41,577 nucleotides of DNA from a virus. Lineage: Duplodnaviria; Caudoviricetes. The translations under genes were made by a program, and so were the position numbers. Where the stretch lies: IMG/VR virus record IMGVR_UViG_3300024325_000006, positions 1 through 41,577 of that record. One strand, 5' to 3'. The first letter of the stretch is position 1. Each line of letters begins with the position of its first letter. Below, in pieces: positions 2,934 to 41,405 of this stretch. The notes below the pieces were generated by a model. It saw only the letters and a program-made list of their open reading frames with translations. It was not told the origin of the DNA and did no database searches.

Positions 2934-2974
2934 TGCTATAATCTAGCTAAGGAAAGCCCTACATAGGGCTTTTT
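2934..2974 (+). promoter_or_regulatory. Late promoter + leader terminator hairpin, copy 1
   Basis: TGCTATAAT-N7-AGGAAAGCCCT-ACAT-AGGGCTTTTT. Confidence 0.8.
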
Positions 2975-3009
2975 ATTGTCCTAAAACCTACGTAACAGAT
3001 ACGGATTTC

Positions 3010-13889: not shown

Positions 13890-13911
13890 AAAAACAGTGA
13901 TATACTAGGCA

Positions 13912-14008
13912 TGTCTCTCACATATAGACCCCTTTGTGAGAGACAAAAGCGTGCGATGCTAGCGGTATAGAAGGGGTCCGCAGAAAATGCATACCGCTAG
14001 TATCACGC
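13912..14008 (+). ncRNA. Two-hairpin kissing-loop RNA candidate
   Basis: TGATATACT 13898-13906; 11-bp and ~18-bp stems; loop segments GACCCCTT and AAGGGGTC are complementary. Confidence 0.6.
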
Positions 14009-14017
14009 CTTATAATT

Positions 14018-14057
14018 TGGTAGAATAAGATCAGGATAGCCCTCTCGAGGGCTTTTT
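14018..14057 (+). promoter_or_regulatory. Late promoter + leader terminator hairpin, copy 4
   Basis: TGGTAGAAT-N6-AGGATAGCCCT-CTCG-AGGGCTTTTT. Confidence 0.8.
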
Positions 14058-14076
14058 ATATTAATAAGGAGATATT

Positions 14077-30068: not shown

Positions 30069-30578
30069 GTGATGCCGAAATCATCGCTGTACGGTAAACC
30101 CAGGCAGTTACGACGTACTAGAAATATAATCGCTCGTGGCTTGAAAGATATTGCCACCGGTAGATCATCTGGGAGATACCCGGCTCTTGATGTAATATTT
30201 AACAATAATAGAAAGGGACACTCCTTGGACCCTGACACGATCTGTACTCCCGACTGTCCACACCGGAACCCAGAGATTATCCAGGATATCAGACCCCAAA
30301 CGGGAGAACGGCTTGCTGTTGTGGAGCACAGGATTGACGAACTCAAGGAGGAGTTTGAGCAGCATCGCGGCGAATCAATACGTGCCGGTGCGCTATTCGC
30401 TACCAAATCCGAGCTAAAAGTCATTGATAAACACATCGACCGTGATATAGCGCCGGCTATCGAACGACTCGCCTCAAGAAGTACGCTCAAAACTGCTGCT
30501 TTGGTAGTCAGCATAATCGGTCTTATGGTCTCCATGGCATACAACGTCATCAATTTGTATAAATTATTCCAGTCATGA
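30069..30578 (+). CDS. Coiled-coil protein with C-terminal TM helix (lysis-associated); start uncertain
   Basis: Overlaps the endolysin start. Confidence 0.5.
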   Translation: MMPKSSLYGKPRQLRRTRNIIARGLKDIATGRSSGRYPALDVIFNNNRKGHSLDPDTICTPDCPHRNPEIIQDIRPQTGERLAVVEHRIDELKEEFEQHRGESIRAGALFATKSELKVIDKHIDRDIAPAIERLASRSTLKTAALVVSIIGLMVSMAYNVINLYKLFQS

Positions 30579-31246
30579 GAATCCCTTCCAGCAATGCTAT
30601 CCGTCTCCTTTTTGGCGCAACTGAATATCCGTATAGTATTGCTTCTCCCCATGAGGGCGTAGACTTCTTACCAGCGCCTGACAATAGAATATATGCACCT
30701 TTCAGTGGTACCGTTATCTTGAAGCCTAACAATGGTCCAGATGGCAACGGACTGTATATGTATAATGGCAAGGATCAATTTCATGGCCTGCTACACACTT
30801 CGAGTTATCTAGTACAAGATGGCCAACACGTTACAGAAGGCGACCCAGTTGCCATTATGGGGTATTCTGGATATGTAGTGCCATCCGGCCCTTTGGGCAG
30901 CCATCTTCATTGGTGTGTGAAGCAGAATGGTACTTTTATCAATCCATTATCATTACTAATAGGAGGTAAAGGCTCCTTAGAAGAACCAATTACTATGCCA
31001 ACAGACGCACAAGTGGATCAGGTGATCAGCATGTGGAACCAGATAGCCTACGGAGTTCCAGCAAGTGCGGCGGTGTTTAATAACCTACGCCCCCAGCTTA
31101 AAAAGGACTTTTTTGGCACAATGCTTCAACTACTCAAGAACGCGGATACCGCCAAGGATTCGCTCAAGAATAACCAAATGAAAGGCAACTGTACGGCTGA
31201 AGAGCGTCAGTTGCTCGATCTTTTAAAGAAAGTAAGTAAGGAATAA
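30575..31246 (+). CDS. M23-family peptidase endolysin
   Basis: HEGVD (HxxxD) and HLH (HxH) zinc motifs. Confidence 0.88.
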   Translation: MRIPSSNAIRLLFGATEYPYSIASPHEGVDFLPAPDNRIYAPFSGTVILKPNNGPDGNGLYMYNGKDQFHGLLHTSSYLVQDGQHVTEGDPVAIMGYSGYVVPSGPLGSHLHWCVKQNGTFINPLSLLIGGKGSLEEPITMPTDAQVDQVISMWNQIAYGVPASAAVFNNLRPQLKKDFFGTMLQLLKNADTAKDSLKNNQMKGNCTAEERQLLDLLKKVSKE

Positions 31247-31248
31247 CC

Positions 31249-31497
31249 ATGAACGATTTTTTTACCAGCCTCATCCGTAGTTATGTACCTCTCATTGTAA
31301 GCTCCGTAGGGGCCTTTTTCGCCGCTCGTGGTGCTAAACTTGATGATCAGGCTATTGCTGGCCTTACGGCCGTTCTATCGGGCTTATTTTACGCTATATA
31401 CTATGGGCTGGTCCGACTATTCGAGAAATATGTATCTCCAAAGTTCGGTTGGCTCTTAGGATATCCCAAAGCGCCTAGCTACCAAAAAGAACAATAA
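31249..31497 (+). CDS. Holin-like membrane protein
   Basis: Two hydrophobic helices after the endolysin, GWLLG..KAP.Y end. Confidence 0.65.
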   Translation: MNDFFTSLIRSYVPLIVSSVGAFFAARGAKLDDQAIAGLTAVLSGLFYAIYYGLVRLFEKYVSPKFGWLLGYPKAPSYQKEQ

Positions 31498-31576
31498 AAA
31501 GATCCGCTCTCCTTCACGGTGGTGATCCAGAGAGCGGAACTAATCAAAGGCGTCATCTGCGGAAACGTGATGACGC
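31496..31576 (-). ncRNA. Candidate trans-acting sRNA with CCUUUGAUUAGUU seed
   Basis: TGATATAAT 31589-31581; hairpin-linker-terminator; linker complementary to a repeated RBS leader. Confidence 0.6.
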
Positions 31577-31586
31577 TTTTATTATA

Positions 31587-31808
31587 TCATAAGTTGTTTT
31601 TAGACTTCAACTCTTCCTTGTGCACTTCTATCCAATGTAACATCGTACTTCTGTCTACTTTGAAAGCTCTGGCTAAGTTGGAAGGATTAACCTTGCTGTT
31701 GTAGAGCTTACAAAACGCTTCATAATCCCAACCATTATGGCGATTCGATGTGTTGTCAAGATACATCTTAAGACCTTGCCGGCGAATGGAGGGAGGAAGA
31801 AATCTCAC
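31587..31808 (-). CDS. Small HTH-like protein (start uncertain)
   Basis: PSNLARAFKVDRSTMLHW helix-turn-helix pattern. Confidence 0.55.
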   Translation of the reverse strand: MRFLPPSIRRQGLKMYLDNTSNRHNGWDYEAFCKLYNSKVNPSNLARAFKVDRSTMLHWIEVHKEELKSKNNL

Positions 31809-32092
31809 TTGAACGCCTTCATCTTACGGGCATAAGTATTTATGTTCACGGGTCTACAGCTACGACGGTTACAGGTACATAACATATCATGATTATAGTG
31901 TATGTGTTTATTCATAAATTTGCGCTCAAAATACAGATATACTCCTTCGACCATGTAATACATAGTGGCTGCGAATTGGGTCCGTGAGAACGCCTTAAAC
32001 ATCCTCACCAAGTCTTCTGCTGTTTGCTGATTAATCTTTTCCATATTTCTTCCGTACAGTGTCCCAATTATTATTCCAATAATAAGGTCCAT
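31805..32092 (-). CDS. Hypothetical protein
   Basis: Preceded by AACTAATCAAAGG leader and TGGTATATT on the minus strand. Confidence 0.6.
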   Translation of the reverse strand: MDLIIGIIIGTLYGRNMEKINQQTAEDLVRMFKAFSRTQFAATMYYMVEGVYLYFERKFMNKHIHYNHDMLCTCNRRSCRPVNINTYARKMKAFK

Positions 32093-32155
32093 ATTACCTA
32101 CCTTTGATTAGTTGATATATGTGTGCATACAAAATATACCACACTACAATATGTG

Positions 32156-32216
32156 TTGACAATACAGTTATGTTTTGCTAGGATGAGAGAGTAAAGCTAA
32201 TCAAAGGAGCTCTATG
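32156..32216 (+). promoter_or_regulatory. Sigma70 promoter + CTAATCAAAGGAG leader driving a 19-aa ORF (32214-32273)
   Basis: TTGACA-17-TAGGAT. Confidence 0.7.
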
Positions 32217-32442
32217 AAACAAGAACTATTAACGCAGTTGATCCGTGAAGGAAAACTGGTAACCATAAAGTGAACATACGAGTTGTGAAGAAGAAAGAGA
32301 AAATGAACATAGAAGTCAAAGTTAGTAGACCGTGGTATTTAGAGTATATTAAGTATTAACTGGCTGCCGGGACCATATCCCGGCATGAAGCCTCCGGATC
32401 GGTGCCCACCCCCTGTCCGGAGGCTTTTGATATAATGAGGGG

Positions 32443-32558
32443 GCAAACGAAAGTTTGTATGCTGACGAGGCAGAAAAACCGCCGACCATTTGAGCACTTC
32501 ACCCTTGGAATAATAGGGAGCCTGTCAGAGGAGAGCTTGAACCGGTGGTTTTTCTTTT
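32443..32558 (+). ncRNA. Pseudoknotted/attenuator-like leader RNA
   Basis: TGATATAAT 32428-32436; 13-bp stem 32472-32484/32543-32555 + T tract; 32462-32471 pairs 32520-32528. Confidence 0.5.
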
Positions 32559-32814
32559 GTGTTAAGCAAAACCAAATTTACTTACATTTCGTGGATCACA
32601 TGTTAAGTTGGCCAATATGTGGACAAACGCATGACGCTTGTGGTATTATGCCAGTAATTCTTAGAACAGTAATCAATTCTGAGAATAGTCGCTCAGCTAT
32701 AGATGGGTGCAAATTGTCCATAAACATAAAAGTAAATGCCCCCTAGTGATAGGAGGCATTGAGAACAGTAATCTCTACTATCCTATCACGGGGGGTTTGA
32801 AAGGTCAAGCCCAA

Positions 32815-33117
32815 ATGAGCACAGAATCGGTCGAGGATACTCTTAAGAAATCATATGATCATAAGAAGTTAAACAAGTTTAACTTTCATAAGAATCTTAA
32901 GACTCATAAGAGTCTAAGTGAAGTAGACAATTTGGTAAATACGATTATTGAGCGATATGGTAATCCACAATTTACGCCCCTTTACCGTAAAGCCGCCTGG
33001 TATTTGCCAGAGGCCACTATAATTACACTTATGGAAAAAGCGGAGAATGCGGATACATCGTGTAATTATTTTGTTAAGTGCGCTAAGAATGCTTTGAGAA
33101 AGTTGGAGACAGTATGA
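32815..33117 (+). CDS. Putative replication initiator-like protein (could start at GTG 32707)
   Basis: Internal octamer repeat array; small helical C-terminal domain. Confidence 0.4.
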   Translation: MSTESVEDTLKKSYDHKKLNKFNFHKNLKTHKSLSEVDNLVNTIIERYGNPQFTPLYRKAAWYLPEATIITLMEKAENADTSCNYFVKCAKNALRKLETV

Positions 33118-33593
33118 ACGACCTAGAAGAAACCAATGCCCAACCTATACCACACGACAAACTGGGCTTAGATCTACACGAGATAATCCTTAACTATTAC
33201 CGAATTTTACATGGTGCTGCGATAGAGTCGGGCGATAATTTCTCGGATGCAGTAATGGACTTTACCGAAGAAATCAAACAAGCCTTCAAAGAGGCCGGAT
33301 GGCTGGAACCTGGTATCGCCAACATTAATGGTATACCCCTAGCTACACCAGAAGGTCGGGCAGTAGAGGCTGCTGTTCACAATGGTAGGATAATGTTGAT
33401 TACTCCTCTTGAACATCACAGATCCCAAGAGGAGATATTACATAAACTTCCTGTTATTATGACCGGTCAGGAGTGGTACGACCGTTTCGAAGTATGTCTA
33501 CCTAAAGAGGTTCTTATGCCCGACGGGACCCTCGGCTACTACAAAAGCGATCTGTTAAAGGCCACTCAGGAAGCTGCGGGGTTAGAAGAATGA
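33114..33593 (+). CDS. Hypothetical protein
   Basis: GGAG RBS, coupled. Confidence 0.65.
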   Translation: MNDLEETNAQPIPHDKLGLDLHEIILNYYRILHGAAIESGDNFSDAVMDFTEEIKQAFKEAGWLEPGIANINGIPLATPEGRAVEAAVHNGRIMLITPLEHHRSQEEILHKLPVIMTGQEWYDRFEVCLPKEVLMPDGTLGYYKSDLLKATQEAAGLEE

Positions 33594-33738
33594 ACATCAA
33601 CTATCTACGCTATATTCTGGATGAGTTGACCATCACGAAATAAAAACACCACCTACGTGCCATTCGGCATTTCAGTGGTTCATATGTATTATACCATGGG
33701 TCATAGAAGTTTTTGAGTTGTATTCTGGAGCCTAACTA

Positions 33739-33800
33739 TTGACTTAAAGACCGTCTTTTGCTACCATGAGGTAGACAGCTAATCAAAGGAGCAAGTCATG
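33739..33800 (+). promoter_or_regulatory. Sigma70 promoter with palindromic operator + CTAATCAAAGGAG leader
   Basis: TTGACT-17-TACCAT; AAAGACCGTCTTT in the spacer. Confidence 0.7.
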
Positions 33801-33962
33801 AAACTATTTACCAATTTAAGAGTTGCCTACGCCCTCTGGAACCACAGACGCAATGCGTATGGACATCGTGGGAACGTGATCAACTACATTGCGCGGCAGA
33901 CACCACACTACATAGTGTATAAATGCAGTTACTGTAATACGCATATTGAGGTGCGGGTATGA
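33798..33962 (+). CDS. 54-aa protein with CxxC (not in ORF track)
   Basis: Hand translation MKLFTNL...KCSYCNTHIEVRV; strong RBS. Confidence 0.6.
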   Translation: MKLFTNLRVAYALWNHRRNAYGHRGNVINYIARQTPHYIVYKCSYCNTHIEVRV

Positions 33963-34098
33963 TGGACTATTTCAACAAAGTGATCAAACCAGCTAGTGAT
34001 AAGCTGGGGGAGATGCTTAATCAAGTAGAACAATATCAATGTCAGAGTTGGGCAGATGTAGGTGCTATTTATGATTGTACTTGTGGGGAGTGTGAGTT

Positions 34099-34460
34099 AT
34101 GAGAGAAATTAAATTTAGGATTTATTCACCGTCTCAAGCATACCAAGGCATGATTACTTCGGTGATCCATATCTAAACAACGAATATAACCATCTTGCAT
34201 TTCAGACTGAGCAAACAGAAGTCGATACAGCGACAGATGAAGACTGGATAATCATGCAATACACCGGTCTAAAAGACAAGAACGGTGTGGAGATATTTGA
34301 GGGGGATCTAATCCAAAAAACTAACTCTCAAACTGGTCAAAAGACTGCAAAGTCTGTCGTTACTTATAATGCTAGATCTGCTAGGTTCGCTGGTTTGTCA
34401 TTTGGTACAAGTATGAATATGGAAGTAATTGGTAATATTTACGAGGGGCAAAAATCATGA
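34099..34460 (+). pseudogene. Frameshifted YopX-family gene
   Basis: MREIKFR frame stops at 34174-34176; MQYTGLKDKNG..IFEGD..VIGNIYE is in another frame. Confidence 0.65.
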
Positions 34461-35494
34461 GCCTCCTAAAACCCGCCTCTAACCAAACCGCCTACCTAAA
34501 AGCCGGAATCCTCGGCTTCCAAGGTAGCGGCAAGAGCTACACCGCTTCACGCATAGCCGTTGGCCTAGCTAAAATGGTCAACAAGAAGAACCCCCGGGTA
34601 GCTTTCTTCGACACAGAAAAGGGTTCTGACTTCTTAGTACCCTACTTCAAGCAGGAAGGTGTAGAACTAGACGTTGCTAAGTCCCGTACATTCGTGGATC
34701 TCTTGGCCTTCATGAGTGAAGCCGAGAAGAACAAGTATGACGTGGCGATCATAGACTCAGTGTCACATATCTGGCGTGAGCTCATGGAGAGCTACCAGAA
34801 CAAGCTGCGCCGGCAGAATGGGCTGTTGTTCCAGGACTGGCGTAAGGTCAAGGGTGAATGGCAGCGATTCACGGATATGTTCATTAACAGCAAGATTCAC
34901 ATTATCGTGCTTGGTCGTGCTGGATACGAGTATGACTTCGATACTGATGAAGCTGGTAAGAAAGAACTGGTTAAGACCGGTACCAAAATGAAGGCCGAAG
35001 CTGAGTTTGGGTATGAGTCGGATATACTGCTAGAAATGGAACGTATTAAGAGCGGTAAGAAGACGATCAACCGTTGCTACATCCTCAAGGATCGTACTGA
35101 TACGATAGATGGCAAAGAGATCGACTTCCCGACTTTCGATAGCTTCAAGACAGTGATTGAGCATTTGAACATAGGCGGTGAGCATTATGGGGTTGATACT
35201 ACCAGAAGCTCCGAGCAGATGTTCGATGATCCCGATAAGTCCTGGTCTAAGGAACGTGAAGCCCGTGAGATCGCTTTGGAGGAGCTAAAGCAAGAGTTTA
35301 TACTCAACGACCTCAACGGCACGTCTACGCCCATTGTGAAGCGTCGTACGGAGCTTCTGATCGAAGCGTATGGTACGAGTGCCTGGTCTGCGATACAGGG
35401 TATGCAGTCTGCGGATATTCGGGATGGGATTTTGAGGATTCGGGCCACTGTGGGCGAAGAGCGTCAAAGGGCCGTAAAAGCTGAGCAGTCATGA
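34457..35494 (+). CDS. Sak4-like/AAA recombination ATPase
   Basis: GFQGSGKS Walker A, FFDTEKGS, IIDSVSH Walker B, YESD. Confidence 0.8.
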   Translation: MSLLKPASNQTAYLKAGILGFQGSGKSYTASRIAVGLAKMVNKKNPRVAFFDTEKGSDFLVPYFKQEGVELDVAKSRTFVDLLAFMSEAEKNKYDVAIIDSVSHIWRELMESYQNKLRRQNGLLFQDWRKVKGEWQRFTDMFINSKIHIIVLGRAGYEYDFDTDEAGKKELVKTGTKMKAEAEFGYESDILLEMERIKSGKKTINRCYILKDRTDTIDGKEIDFPTFDSFKTVIEHLNIGGEHYGVDTTRSSEQMFDDPDKSWSKEREAREIALEELKQEFILNDLNGTSTPIVKRRTELLIEAYGTSAWSAIQGMQSADIRDGILRIRATVGEERQRAVKAEQS

Positions 35495-35721
35495 CGAAGT
35501 CTAAATCAGGTATAGCTCTGGGGGAGTTGGACTACACGGTGGTCAAGACGGACATACTACGGGGTGTTAAAGAGTACCCATTCCCCGAAGATATGGACGA
35601 GCTCGTGTATCTGAGCGTTGAAGATTTTAGCTTTACCATAGACGACAAGAAGGTGGTGCTCAAAAAGACTCCCGATGTTGACGTGATTAGTGGTATCGTG
35701 ATCCACTACCGAGCACTATGA
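35491..35721 (+). CDS. Hypothetical protein
   Basis: Coupled. Confidence 0.55.
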   Translation: MTKSKSGIALGELDYTVVKTDILRGVKEYPFPEDMDELVYLSVEDFSFTIDDKKVVLKKTPDVDVISGIVIHYRAL

Positions 35722-35723
35722 TA

Positions 35724-35784
35724 TTGCATAAAGACCGTCCTTAAGCTATACTGGTAATGTAAACTAATCAAAGGAGATAACATG
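35724..35784 (+). promoter_or_regulatory. Sigma70 promoter with operator + CTAATCAAAGGAG leader
   Basis: TTGCAT-17-TATACT; AAAGACCGTCCTT in the spacer. Confidence 0.7.
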
Positions 35785-36015
35785 GTAACACCAGAGGAGT
35801 TTCTAACCGAACTCGAACGGGATTGGGTGAGAGCTGACCCCATGGACCGTCATAAGATTGTGATGGGGTATGCTTCACTTATGCGGTCTCGTGAGACTGA
35901 GATGCGTGAGGTGGAGCGTATGGATATTGTTGCTCATATGACCATTGGAGAAGACGGATTGTATTTGGATCAGGATTTGTGTGATTGGATGAAGGATGAG
36001 CATGAGAGAAATTAA
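35782..36015 (+). CDS. Hypothetical protein
   Basis: Strong RBS. Confidence 0.65.
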   Translation: MVTPEEFLTELERDWVRADPMDRHKIVMGYASLMRSRETEMREVERMDIVAHMTIGEDGLYLDQDLCDWMKDEHERN

Positions 36016-36361
36016 GTTTAGAGCGTGGGATAAAAATACAAAAACCTTAATTCGTGATGTTTTTGTTCTTACTCCAGGCGCTACAATCATCAATGGTAGG
36101 GGGCTAGCTCATGATTGTGTTCTTATGCAATACACCGGCCTGAAAGACAAGAATGGTGTGGAGATTTATGAGGGGGATATACTGCAAATTGTAGGCGGCA
36201 CAATGCGGGCGCTGGCCACTGTTAGGTTCGATGAAGGTTCTTTTCTAGTAAATAATCCAGTTGGTGGAGACTTAACGCTGCGTGATGCCCAACTTATACC
36301 ACATGCAACCATCGAAATTATCGGCAACATCTACGAGCATAAGGAGCTTTTGCATGGGTGA
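36002..36361 (+). CDS. YopX-family protein
   Basis: MREIKFRAWD...MQYTGLKDKNGVEIYEGD...IIGNIYE. Confidence 0.9.
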   Translation: MREIKFRAWDKNTKTLIRDVFVLTPGATIINGRGLAHDCVLMQYTGLKDKNGVEIYEGDILQIVGGTMRALATVRFDEGSFLVNNPVGGDLTLRDAQLIPHATIEIIGNIYEHKELLHG

Positions 36362-36782
36362 CAGATACTTAACCAAACCAACGCATAAAAATGCCACTAA
36401 CACCGTCAAAGCTAAGTGCGAGAACTGTCTCGTAACTTACTGGGAGACTGCCAGTAGTTACAACCGAAAGAAGCGACACTTTCACAGCGCCGCCTGCTAC
36501 GCCATGTATCGGGAGTTTCACCTTCCACGAGAGGAGCAGAACGCTTACGGTACGGGACACAGTCCGGAGGAACGGGCAAAGCGCCGAAAAGCTCGCTCTA
36601 CCCTCAACCACCACCTACGCGATAAGGGTTTAGAACGTCCGAGCTGCGAAGTCTGTGGCGCAAAGGCCGAAGCTCACCATGATGACTATGACAAGCCGCT
36701 AGATGTTCGATGGCTTTGCTTTAAGCACCACCGCGCACATCATAAAGCAGTCCACGAAAACCCGGAGCTCCTAAATGCCTAA
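36354..36782 (+). CDS. Zinc-binding HNH-like protein
   Basis: CEVCG..AEAHHDDY..PLDVRWLCFKHH; AAGGAG RBS before ATG 36354. Confidence 0.75.
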   Translation: MGDRYLTKPTHKNATNTVKAKCENCLVTYWETASSYNRKKRHFHSAACYAMYREFHLPREEQNAYGTGHSPEERAKRRKARSTLNHHLRDKGLERPSCEVCGAKAEAHHDDYDKPLDVRWLCFKHHRAHHKAVHENPELLNA

Positions 36783-38258: not shown

Positions 38259-38543
38259 ATGAGCAAGTCGCAACACTACACAACCCTCATTAAAAATTCG
38301 CCCGCTCTGCAGGCCGCAATTGAGGATGCCCAGCTTTCGGTTGACATCTCCATGCAAATTGCCAAGCTTCGCCAGGAGAAGGGATGCAGCCAAAAGGAGC
38401 TGGCCGAGCTTGCCGGCATCCAGCAATCAAATATCTCAAGGCTCGAGAGCCCCGGCTACCAAGGATACACGCTCAAAGTCTTGAGCAAGGTAGTGCGCGC
38501 CCTGGGGGGCAGGCTTAAGGTTGAGATAGAGGACGCATCTTGA
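38259..38543 (+). CDS. XRE-family HTH regulator
   Basis: LRQEKGCSQKELAELAGIQQSNISRLE. Confidence 0.88.
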   Translation: MSKSQHYTTLIKNSPALQAAIEDAQLSVDISMQIAKLRQEKGCSQKELAELAGIQQSNISRLESPGYQGYTLKVLSKVVRALGGRLKVEIEDAS

Positions 38544-38642
38544 CATTGTGCGTGCACTTTGCTACGATGTAAGTAGTTCAAACGAAGGTAAAAGTTATAC
38601 AACGCCTTGACCGCTGAACGAAAGATATAAACTAATCAAAGG

Positions 38643-38743
38643 GTAGAACGTAGTCGTGCTGGCGATAATATGCCGGAATTCTAGATGACATAGGCGATGG
38701 GGAATAGACTCACCATTATTATCGCCTGCACCATACGTTCTAC
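38643..38743. other. 101-bp palindromic insert flanked by AAAGG direct repeats
   Basis: GTAGAACGTA/TACGTTCTAC termini; AAAGG at 38638-38642 and 38744-38748. Confidence 0.55.
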
Positions 38744-38754
38744 AAAGGAGCACT

Positions 38755-38871
38755 ATGCGTACACCAAAAGTAAAACACTTTAAAGACGAATCAAGCCTCA
38801 CGGCATTCGTGGACAAGACAATCGGCAAGAGACGAGCAGTCAGTATTCAAGGTCTGACCGTCTGCTACTAA
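38755..38871 (+). CDS. 38-aa hypothetical protein (not in ORF track)
   Basis: AAAGGAG RBS; TTGACA-17-TACGAT promoter at 38540-38568. Confidence 0.55.
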   Translation: MRTPKVKHFKDESSLTAFVDKTIGKRRAVSIQGLTVCY

Positions 38872-39325: not shown

Positions 39326-39550
39326 ATGACAGGGGCACAAAGAGCTATTAATAAGCATCTGAAAGTGTATGGGCTAAAGATGTCCAAGAAGATTGGTTCT
39401 AGTTTTCTATCTGTTACGTATGACAGGAGGATGGTGTACTCGTTGGAGGATTTATATAAACTCATCGGTGAAGGGTTTAGCATTGATACAAATATTTGTG
39501 CCTTTTTGTTTGATGCGTTTATGTTGGAGGGGAAGAAATCTGAGAGATAG
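39326..39550 (+). CDS. Hypothetical protein
   Basis: GAGG RBS. Confidence 0.55.
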   Translation: MTGAQRAINKHLKVYGLKMSKKIGSSFLSVTYDRRMVYSLEDLYKLIGEGFSIDTNICAFLFDAFMLEGKKSER

Positions 39551-41087: not shown

Positions 41088-41147
41088 TTGACCCTGGTGT
41101 TACATTTTGCTACACTATGTATACAAACTAATTAAGGAGCTCACATG
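41088..41147 (+). promoter_or_regulatory. Sigma70 promoter + variant leader AACTAATTAAGGAG
   Basis: TTGACC-17-TACACT with TG extension. Confidence 0.7.
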
Positions 41148-41405
41148 AGTAAAGTCCTAGAAGAAGGCAAAAAGGTATTTATCAGAACCGTAACCTACCA
41201 CATGGTTGGTAAGATCGAAGCTATCAAAGATGGCATGATTGAGCTTTCTGAAGCTTCATGGATCGCAGACAGCGGTCGCTTCTCGAATGCTCTCAAAGAA
41301 GGTACTTTAAGCGAAGTAGAACCCGTTGGTGATGCTTGTGTAAGCCTAGGCGCTCTTGTTGACGCTTTCCCTTGGACGCACGAACTTCCCACTAAGCAGA
41401 AATAG
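41145..41405 (+). CDS. Sm/SH3-like small beta-barrel protein
   Basis: KKVFIRT..YHMVGKIEAIKDGMIELSEA resembles the Sm1 motif. Confidence 0.55.
   Translation: MSKVLEEGKKVFIRTVTYHMVGKIEAIKDGMIELSEASWIADSGRFSNALKEGTLSEVEPVGDACVSLGALVDAFPWTHELPTKQK

Follow-up and report, generated by a model that had tools for sequence, protein, structure and literature searches.

A candidate small-RNA gene whose seed is complementary to a leader tag shared by early genes of an uncultured soil phage

The window analysed here is a whole 41.6-kb virus record (41,577 nucleotides). A unit on its minus strand is, with moderate probability and judging from the sequence, the gene for an antisense repressor, a predicted RNA of ~80 nt that would act in trans on early leaders of the phage itself. 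The tag shared by these leaders, its position, its complement, the fold around that complement and an equivalent arrangement of different sequences in three relatives were read from the DNA itself. The earlier note on this DNA had proposed a multi-target antisense repressor; the proposal gained from relatives in which other tags are accompanied by matching complements, but lost from four tag-bearing relatives in which no unit was found.

The predicted minus-strand RNA and its surroundings

The window encodes a terminase, a P22-like portal, a major head protein and GroEL. A plus-strand lysis cassette ends at 31497; beyond it lie the short operon 32092-31587, which reads leftward, and, from 32214, a rightward region of small ORFs. 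An HTH_3 protein is encoded at 38259-38543, and further small DNA-binder-like ORFs are present. The sequencing runs that matched 30500-36500 were DNA from soil metagenomes, no RNA run being listed among them, and the phage is uncultured; fragments from four DNA runs were all identical to the window, none of them covering the small-RNA unit. Capsid or terminase alignments revealed no prophage relative in genome_contigs, the names of homologues gave no pointer to a host, neither an integrase nor an antirepressor was found among 35 ORFs scanned, and an AAA-protein search found no relative. The features around the unit are:

31249..31497, plus strand: last ORF of the lysis cassette, 82 aa, holin-like by position, phrog_10742
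31496..31576, minus strand: predicted ~80-nt small RNA, with a 5' hairpin, a seed linker and an intrinsic terminator
31538..31550, minus strand: seed CCUUUGAUUAGUU, exact complement of the leader tag
31546..31584, plus strand: predicted lysis-operon terminator, the same 5' hairpin read on the plus strand, with a GAAA tetraloop and a U-tract
31581..31610, minus strand: predicted small-RNA promoter, TTGAAG-18-TG-TATAAT, overlapping the stop of ORF 31808-31587
31587..32092, minus strand: leftward operon with ORFs of 95 aa and 73 aa; its 3' end contains the predicted RNA and its leader is a target

At the sequence level, a promoter of its own and an intrinsic terminator were found around a non-coding unit in the 50-150 nt range. 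An extended -10, TGATATAAT (31589-31581, minus strand), stands 18 nt from a -35 TTGAAG at 31610, and its TG belongs to the TGA stop of ORF 31808-31587. It is followed by a hairpin (31576-31550), the linker CCTTTGATTAGTT (31550-31538), a terminator hairpin (31538-31503) and a U-tract from 31502, the first and last base of the 13-mer being shared with the flanking hairpins. Re-reading of the sequence and folding (z = -5.5 for the minus strand) confirmed the extended -10, the hairpin-linker-hairpin build and all of their coordinates as given in the earlier note. The description of the linker as largely single-stranded held for the half that would pair with the Shine-Dalgarno (SD) sequence, where CUUU was unpaired at about 1.0, but not for AG and the last U, which are predicted to pair with the tail (unpaired 0.06-0.13). 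An accessible seed complementary to target translation starts was therefore found with its 5' half open and its 3' half partly paired. Opening it would cost 2.5-7.8 kcal/mol on the minus strand versus 10.0 on the plus strand.

The same letters can also be read as a pair of convergent, overlapping terminators that use the tag as a spacer. Folding is more stable on the plus strand than on the minus strand (-42.0 versus -32.7), and the plus-strand fold carries a GAAA tetraloop. The convergent-terminator reading counts against the small RNA, as does the overlap of the -10 with a stop codon. The terminators account for both hairpins without a small RNA, but not for the 13/13 tag between them. On the plus strand the AAAGG of the tag is paired within the terminator (unpaired at most 0.14), which disfavours the alternative raised previously, that the plus-strand copy serves as a decoy. 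The 3' UTR of the 82-aa lysis ORF would be cis-antisense to the whole predicted RNA. These overlapping terminators had been missed in the first reading, as had two points described below: a hairpin that links the 38630 tag to its SD, and the Sm/LSm fold predicted for one target.

A leader tag at early gene starts

The 13-mer tag, ARCTAATCAAAGG, has six exact copies in the window, at 31538, 32113-32101 (minus strand), 32195, 33777, 35762 and 38630, versus 0.004 expected under Markov models of order 1-3; the claim that a motif complementary to the linker recurs at these sites was thereby upheld. One copy with a single mismatch lies within terL (1315-1303), and a variant at 41126 differs by a C>T change and lacks one A. 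Four exact tags and the variant cover the SD of promoter-proximal genes, and every sense copy outside the small-RNA unit is tied to a gene start. The leaders are:

32101..32162, minus strand: promoter and tag before ORF 32092
32156..32273, plus strand: promoter, tag 32195-32207 and a 19-codon ORF from 32214, head of the early region
33739..33962, plus strand: promoter, tag 33777-33789 and a 54-aa ORF
35724..36015, plus strand: weaker promoter (-35 TTGCAT, 3/6), tag 35762-35774 and a 77-aa ORF
38540..38871, plus strand: promoter, ancestral-type AAACGAAGG at 38580, tag 38630-38642, 101-nt hairpin, SD and a 38-codon ORF from 38755
41088..41405, plus strand: promoter, variant tag 41126-41137 and an 86-aa ORF with a predicted Sm/LSm fold

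Four of the rightward cassettes have the start of the tag, or of the variant, 9-10 nt past the -10 box and its end in the SD; the distance from the -10 is 19 nt in the leftward cassette and 61 nt for the 38630 copy. The non-random element is this spacing from -10 to motif (9-10 nt in 4/6). The earlier note had given each target its own sigma70-type promoter, and promoters were indeed called, but the one before 35762 is weaker and the window as a whole shows no excess of promoter-like sites (21 found versus 25.7 expected). At 41126 the indel variant keeps the duplex. The argument that all deviations are G-U compatible is weak, with two independent changes, both transitions. At 38630 a hairpin (38643-38743, 101 nt, -42.8 kcal/mol) parts the tag from an AAAGGAG SD and the ATG at 38755, and the sequence reads as a standard leader when the hairpin is left out. 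The hairpin has 10-bp terminal inverted repeats and flanking AAAGG direct repeats, and may be a MITE-like insert or an RNA switch; no further copy was found among the loci compared.

When the seed was compared with 330 start regions, the four exact leaders ranked 1-4 and the variant 7th. The best duplex was with the 32092 leader (14 bp, -18.9). In accessibility-corrected energies from an RNAup-like script, the window RNA reached -11.5 kcal/mol on its own five leaders (range -5.6 to -13.9), the 41126 variant being the weakest site (-5.6). The exact small-RNA unit was absent from viral_contigs; a 15-nt form of the tag occurred at at least 120 loci in 33/64 parts of the collection, none multi-copy among the matches listed.

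The gene behind the variant tag, ORF 41145-41405, had 566 homologues and no Pfam family. Its model (pLDDT 92, 59 sequences) matched Sm/LSm chains in Foldseek (best E 6e-4, the 1 match under 0.001), and VIA gave Z 8.9 and an rmsd of 2.1 over 67 residues, the best 30 rows being Sm/LSm-type chains. The product is thus predicted, from the modelled structure, to have an Sm/LSm fold. With tblastn it was found in 1/16 relatives, and not in G006, G012 or G014; being absent from these unit-bearing relatives, it is not required for the RNA design, and a role of the modelled protein as a pairing chaperone is speculation. The T4 early proteins GoF, MotB.1 and Frd.2 also have a predicted LSm-like fold (PMC12152347). 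The likeness to ORF 41145 is one of predicted fold only, and a link to a phage small RNA is found in neither, as far as the accessible text of that paper goes. On the 3' side of ORF 41145 we observed hexamer tandem repeats, GGTCAG/C/T, at 41415-41577/1-420, reading Ser-Gly/Ser-Arg/Ser-Trp; the pair of Sm/LSm-fold ORF and hexamer repeat is kept in G031 (L337).

Other tags and matching RNAs in relatives

The comparison covered 31 related virus records, complete or almost complete where possible. No exact copy of the window tag was present in 17 relatives searched, G031 included. Other shared leader tags were taken forward in seven relatives (G002, G006, G012, G013, G014, G015 and G017). Those of G014, G012 and G006 are of the AAACGAARGG type, and each of these three genomes has a promoter-led structured RNA that exposes the complement of its own leader tag; the window retains one ancestral-type copy, at 38580.

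In G014 the tag AATAAACGAAAGG lies in five leaders, each followed by CAATGAC after 4-6 variable nt. Two paralogous cassettes (105+ and 39950+, 86% over 378 nt) each specify a promoter-led predicted RNA of 77 nt that exposes GUCAUUG in its loop and, in its bulge, CUUUCGUUU, and these RNAs would pair with both the SD and CAAUGAC (start codon) across the variable spacer. Differences between the paralogues fall between the pairing blocks and none inside them. Three substitutions in the terminator stem exchange G-U and Watson-Crick pairs and preserve the stem on the seed strand alone, and from the sequence these changes appear to fix the seed strand in G014. The units of G012 and G006 were found by a seeded scan with leader sets fixed beforehand. 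An extended -10 unit in G012 (26717-), with seed UUUACCCUUUCG, forms 8, 12 and 11 bp with three leaders, and one in G006 (353+) forms 8 bp, including one G-U, with two leaders; both have the G014 build of outer stem, inner hairpin and bulged seed. The window RNA is built differently from the other four, so that the likeness is one of design and does not imply homology.

On the seed/target covariation to which the earlier note had looked, the outcome was mixed: cognate seed/tag pairs are present in 4/8 tag-bearing genomes, with RNAs that are not alignable to that of the window, and the other four show none. No unit was found in the tag-bearing G002, G013 and G017 (complete) or G015 (half-complete), and the closest relative, G001, had neither a unit nor a shared tag. 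The G010 homologue of the 73-aa ORF lacks a comparable 3' element. When the collection was scanned for the G012/G014 layout, 26 loci were returned, with G012 and G014 and no new member, and a scan of 125 terminase loci again gave G014 only. Rfam gave no match for the right end of G014. In a terminase tree of 32 rows (G003, G027 and G031 were left out, having no usable sequence) the four unit-bearing genomes fell within one weakly supported nine-row group (85/99), together with G001, G002, G013, G029 and G030; unit-bearing and tag-only genomes were not separated on the tree (3 changes, shuffled mean 2.9). A 'unit' at 39532 in G013 proved to be a leader read on its other strand and was dropped, and the first, G-U-tolerant unit screen was discarded as too noisy.

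Specificity was compared across these RNAs. Three RNAs scored best on their own leader sets, with -17.9 for G014a, -15.1 for G014b and -13.8 for G012, and the G006 RNA was not specific (-8.7 on its own set versus -9.0 on that of G012). The window RNA scored -1.9 to -6.6 on six other leader sets, and the four other RNAs -1.9 to -4.0 on the leaders of the window; no cross-reaction is predicted between the window and G014 pairs. In a pooled control, 219 strong-promoter units from 32 records were run against 8 leader sets, and 5/75 cognate versus 18/1677 non-cognate combinations passed. Of the five cognate passes, three belong to candidates and two overlap each other at a single unrelated place in G006; of the 18 non-cognate ones, 10 belong to candidate RNAs on homologous tags and 8 are background. 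Neither the window's own unit nor G014b, when paired with its own leaders, reached the thresholds of this control.

Several further elements were observed. A second extended -10 unit in the window, at 33693-33640 (minus strand), is divergent from the 33762 promoter; with its outer stem, inner hairpin and U-tract it resembles the G006 RNA, without a seed. At 13901-14060 (plus strand) an extended -10 precedes two strong hairpins (-40 kcal/mol; CCCCTTTG loop in one), and this stretch is possibly another small RNA. A promoter-led, conserved, RNA-like element, CCGCAGCTTA...AGCGCTGCGG, occurs at G011:4230+, G012:22109- and G013:9354+. The otherwise distant G014 and G015 share a near-identical promoter-led non-coding stretch (7519- and 4984+, respectively), and two unrelated, larger phages (L377 and L385) have up to seven AGAAAACGAAAGGGG leaders within 20 kb.

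Proposed mechanism, rival readings and known systems

If the unit is an antisense gene, its RNA would either be transcribed by host sigma70 polymerase, starting from the extended -10 at 31586, or arise as the 3' end of the leftward operon. The open CCUUU half would nucleate on AAAGG and zip over 12-13 nt, and the duplex would cover half of the SD and leader positions from about +3 to +16, blocking ribosome loading. Translation of the first gene of each cassette, in five or six early transcripts, would drop. The operon that carries the RNA would be among the targets, giving negative feedback; the Sm-fold gene would also be repressed, at the weakest site; and at 38630 the RNA would block a standby site beside the hairpin-bridged SD. 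Late in infection the 3' end of the lysis mRNA, crossing the unit in the opposite sense, would titrate the RNA. The most likely purpose would be to cap early, probably host-toxic, expression after a first burst or in a carrier state. A broader and more tentative view, to which we give well under even chances, is that this would be the phage RNA counterpart of a repressor and its operators: the tag would join a gene to the regulon, one seed would silence all members, seed and tag would drift together to give immunity-like specificities (AACUAAUCAAAGG here, AAACGAARGG in relatives), a self-encoded Sm-ring chaperone would stand under the tag, the lysis mRNA tail would act as a sponge, and the same logic would hold for the start-associated SAS tags of cluster K phages.

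The tag might instead be an asymmetric DNA operator or stoperator just past the transcription start, bound by a phage repressor, with the 31538 copy as one more operator between terminators. The fixed 9-10 nt from the -10 box in four promoters, the position of all seven sites downstream of promoter-like sequence, the sense orientation of the 31538 copy for the lysis transcript, and the presence of the HTH_3 protein and other small DNA-binder-like ORFs as candidates fit this reading; we consider it unlikely, as an indel is tolerated at 41126, the tag always ends in the SD, and the reverse copy in G014 matches the start codon too, across variable spacers. Better operator candidates are words shared by promoter spacers, AAAGACCGTC at 33746 and 35730 in the window and GTAAGCG in the G006, G012 and G013 promoters, which may be DNA operators. 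Equally unlikely, in our estimate, is that duplication of a single promoter-RBS cassette gave rise to the leaders, the 31538 copy being a leftover spacer between two terminators with no pairing role. Homologous promoter spacers between cassettes, hairpins that are both explicable as terminators, and shared tags with no detected antisense unit in 4/8 genomes are consistent with it, but a neutral copy would hardly lie exactly between the stems at 13/13 identity with flanks that have nothing in common, three relatives show the same placement of a different sequence, and the G014 paralogues diverge around the pairing blocks and not within them.

Leaders can also be recognized by proteins, as by T4 RegA. 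A single-stranded site for an RNA-binding protein, for example the phage Sm-fold protein, with the plus-strand copy in the lysis mRNA tail as a decoy, would suit the unstructured, A-rich tags and the variant tag in the leader of ORF 41145 itself. This we regard as quite improbable, for AAAGG is paired in the plus-strand terminator, the ORF is found in so few relatives, its 88% identical G031 homologue has a different leader, and a shared fold alone indicates no function. The best duplex, with the 32092 leader, joins that leader to a seed in the 3' UTR of its own operon, and pairing might then be mainly in cis, the leftward mRNA tail folding onto its own leader (32113-32101) and the other matches being by-products of cassette duplication. 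A dedicated extended -10 precedes the window unit, however, and the units of G006, G012 and G014 are led by promoters of their own, with transcription running away from the neighbouring leader, which leaves cis pairing with the lowest probability of these readings, a very small one.

The antisense reading has partial parallels among known phage RNAs. The CI RNA of P4 is a small phage RNA that controls development by pairing with phage mRNA, and P22 sar and lambda OOP act in this way as well. The latter two are so described in the available text of one review of the subject (PMC12197685). As far as these accounts go, sar, OOP and P4 CI have one target operon each and mostly overlap their own gene, whereas the window seed is common to several distant leaders. 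The C4 antisense RNA of P1/P7 is described as about 77-80 nt long, with unpaired segments that pair in trans near a phage RBS and a specificity that shifts by seed/target co-variation (PMC5320573, PMC12197685). The window RNA is similar in size and in trans pairing near a phage RBS, and the two-block pairing of G014 resembles the a'/b' design of C4; on the accessible descriptions the window RNA would work like C4 and is not a member of its family. Rfam found no family at gathering score in the window, hence no C4 match. C4 has three stem-loops with a' and b' loops, is processed by RNase P and targets the ant operon, whereas the window RNA has two hairpins and one linker seed, a predicted promoter and terminator of its own, and five or six promoter-proximal leaders as targets. 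No phage small RNA with one seed for many of its own leaders was found in the literature searched, which excluded most subscription journals, bioRxiv and supplements.

The closest parallel to the tag is SAS of cluster K mycobacteriophages, a 13-bp asymmetric tag over the RBS of non-structural genes (PMC3203893). Pope et al. noted a single reversed copy, off gene starts, in four K1 phages and gave the role of SAS as unknown (PMC3203893), and it was still called unknown in 2024 and 2025 (PMC11373665, PMC12699233). The accessible text of these papers proposes no antisense RNA (PMC3203893, PMC11373665, PMC12699233). Judged by those descriptions, the window tag and SAS have in common the 13-bp asymmetric form, the position over the RBS of non-structural genes and a lone copy off a start, while the SAS consensus, GGGATAGGAGCCC, and the tag of this GroEL-bearing phage are unrelated in sequence, host group and structure. 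In Anaya we found the reversed SAS in the loop of a hairpin, within a non-coding element that follows a conserved promoter. This ~300-nt structured element (L304:31750-32040; also L307-L316), at the right end of cluster K genomes, matched 193 records of mycobacteriophages. Of the aligned K elements, 5/12 kept the exposed 10-nt anti-SAS, and three K elements gave no Rfam match. By analogy, the antisense reading of SAS is a lead, and the window case gives a direct test for a tag described in 2011 and, in the sources available, unexplained since.

As they are described in the text available, C4, sar and OOP control one operon each; one seed for every early cassette would, if true, make an RNA-only regulon, portable with its promoter-leader cassettes and re-specifiable by few base changes. 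The window and G014 pairs, with their predicted lack of cross-reaction, might also yield a compact orthogonal translation switch.

The late region of the window has a cassette of a different kind, in which a -10 box, about 9 nt and a conserved AGGA..GCCC/GGGCT-U-tract terminator stand directly before structural genes. It has 5 copies in the window (2937-2980, ~6178, 10458, 14034 and 21631; plus strand) and occurs in the relatives G001, G002, G003, G005 and G010, with 5 copies each in G001 and G010, which suggests antitermination-type late control.
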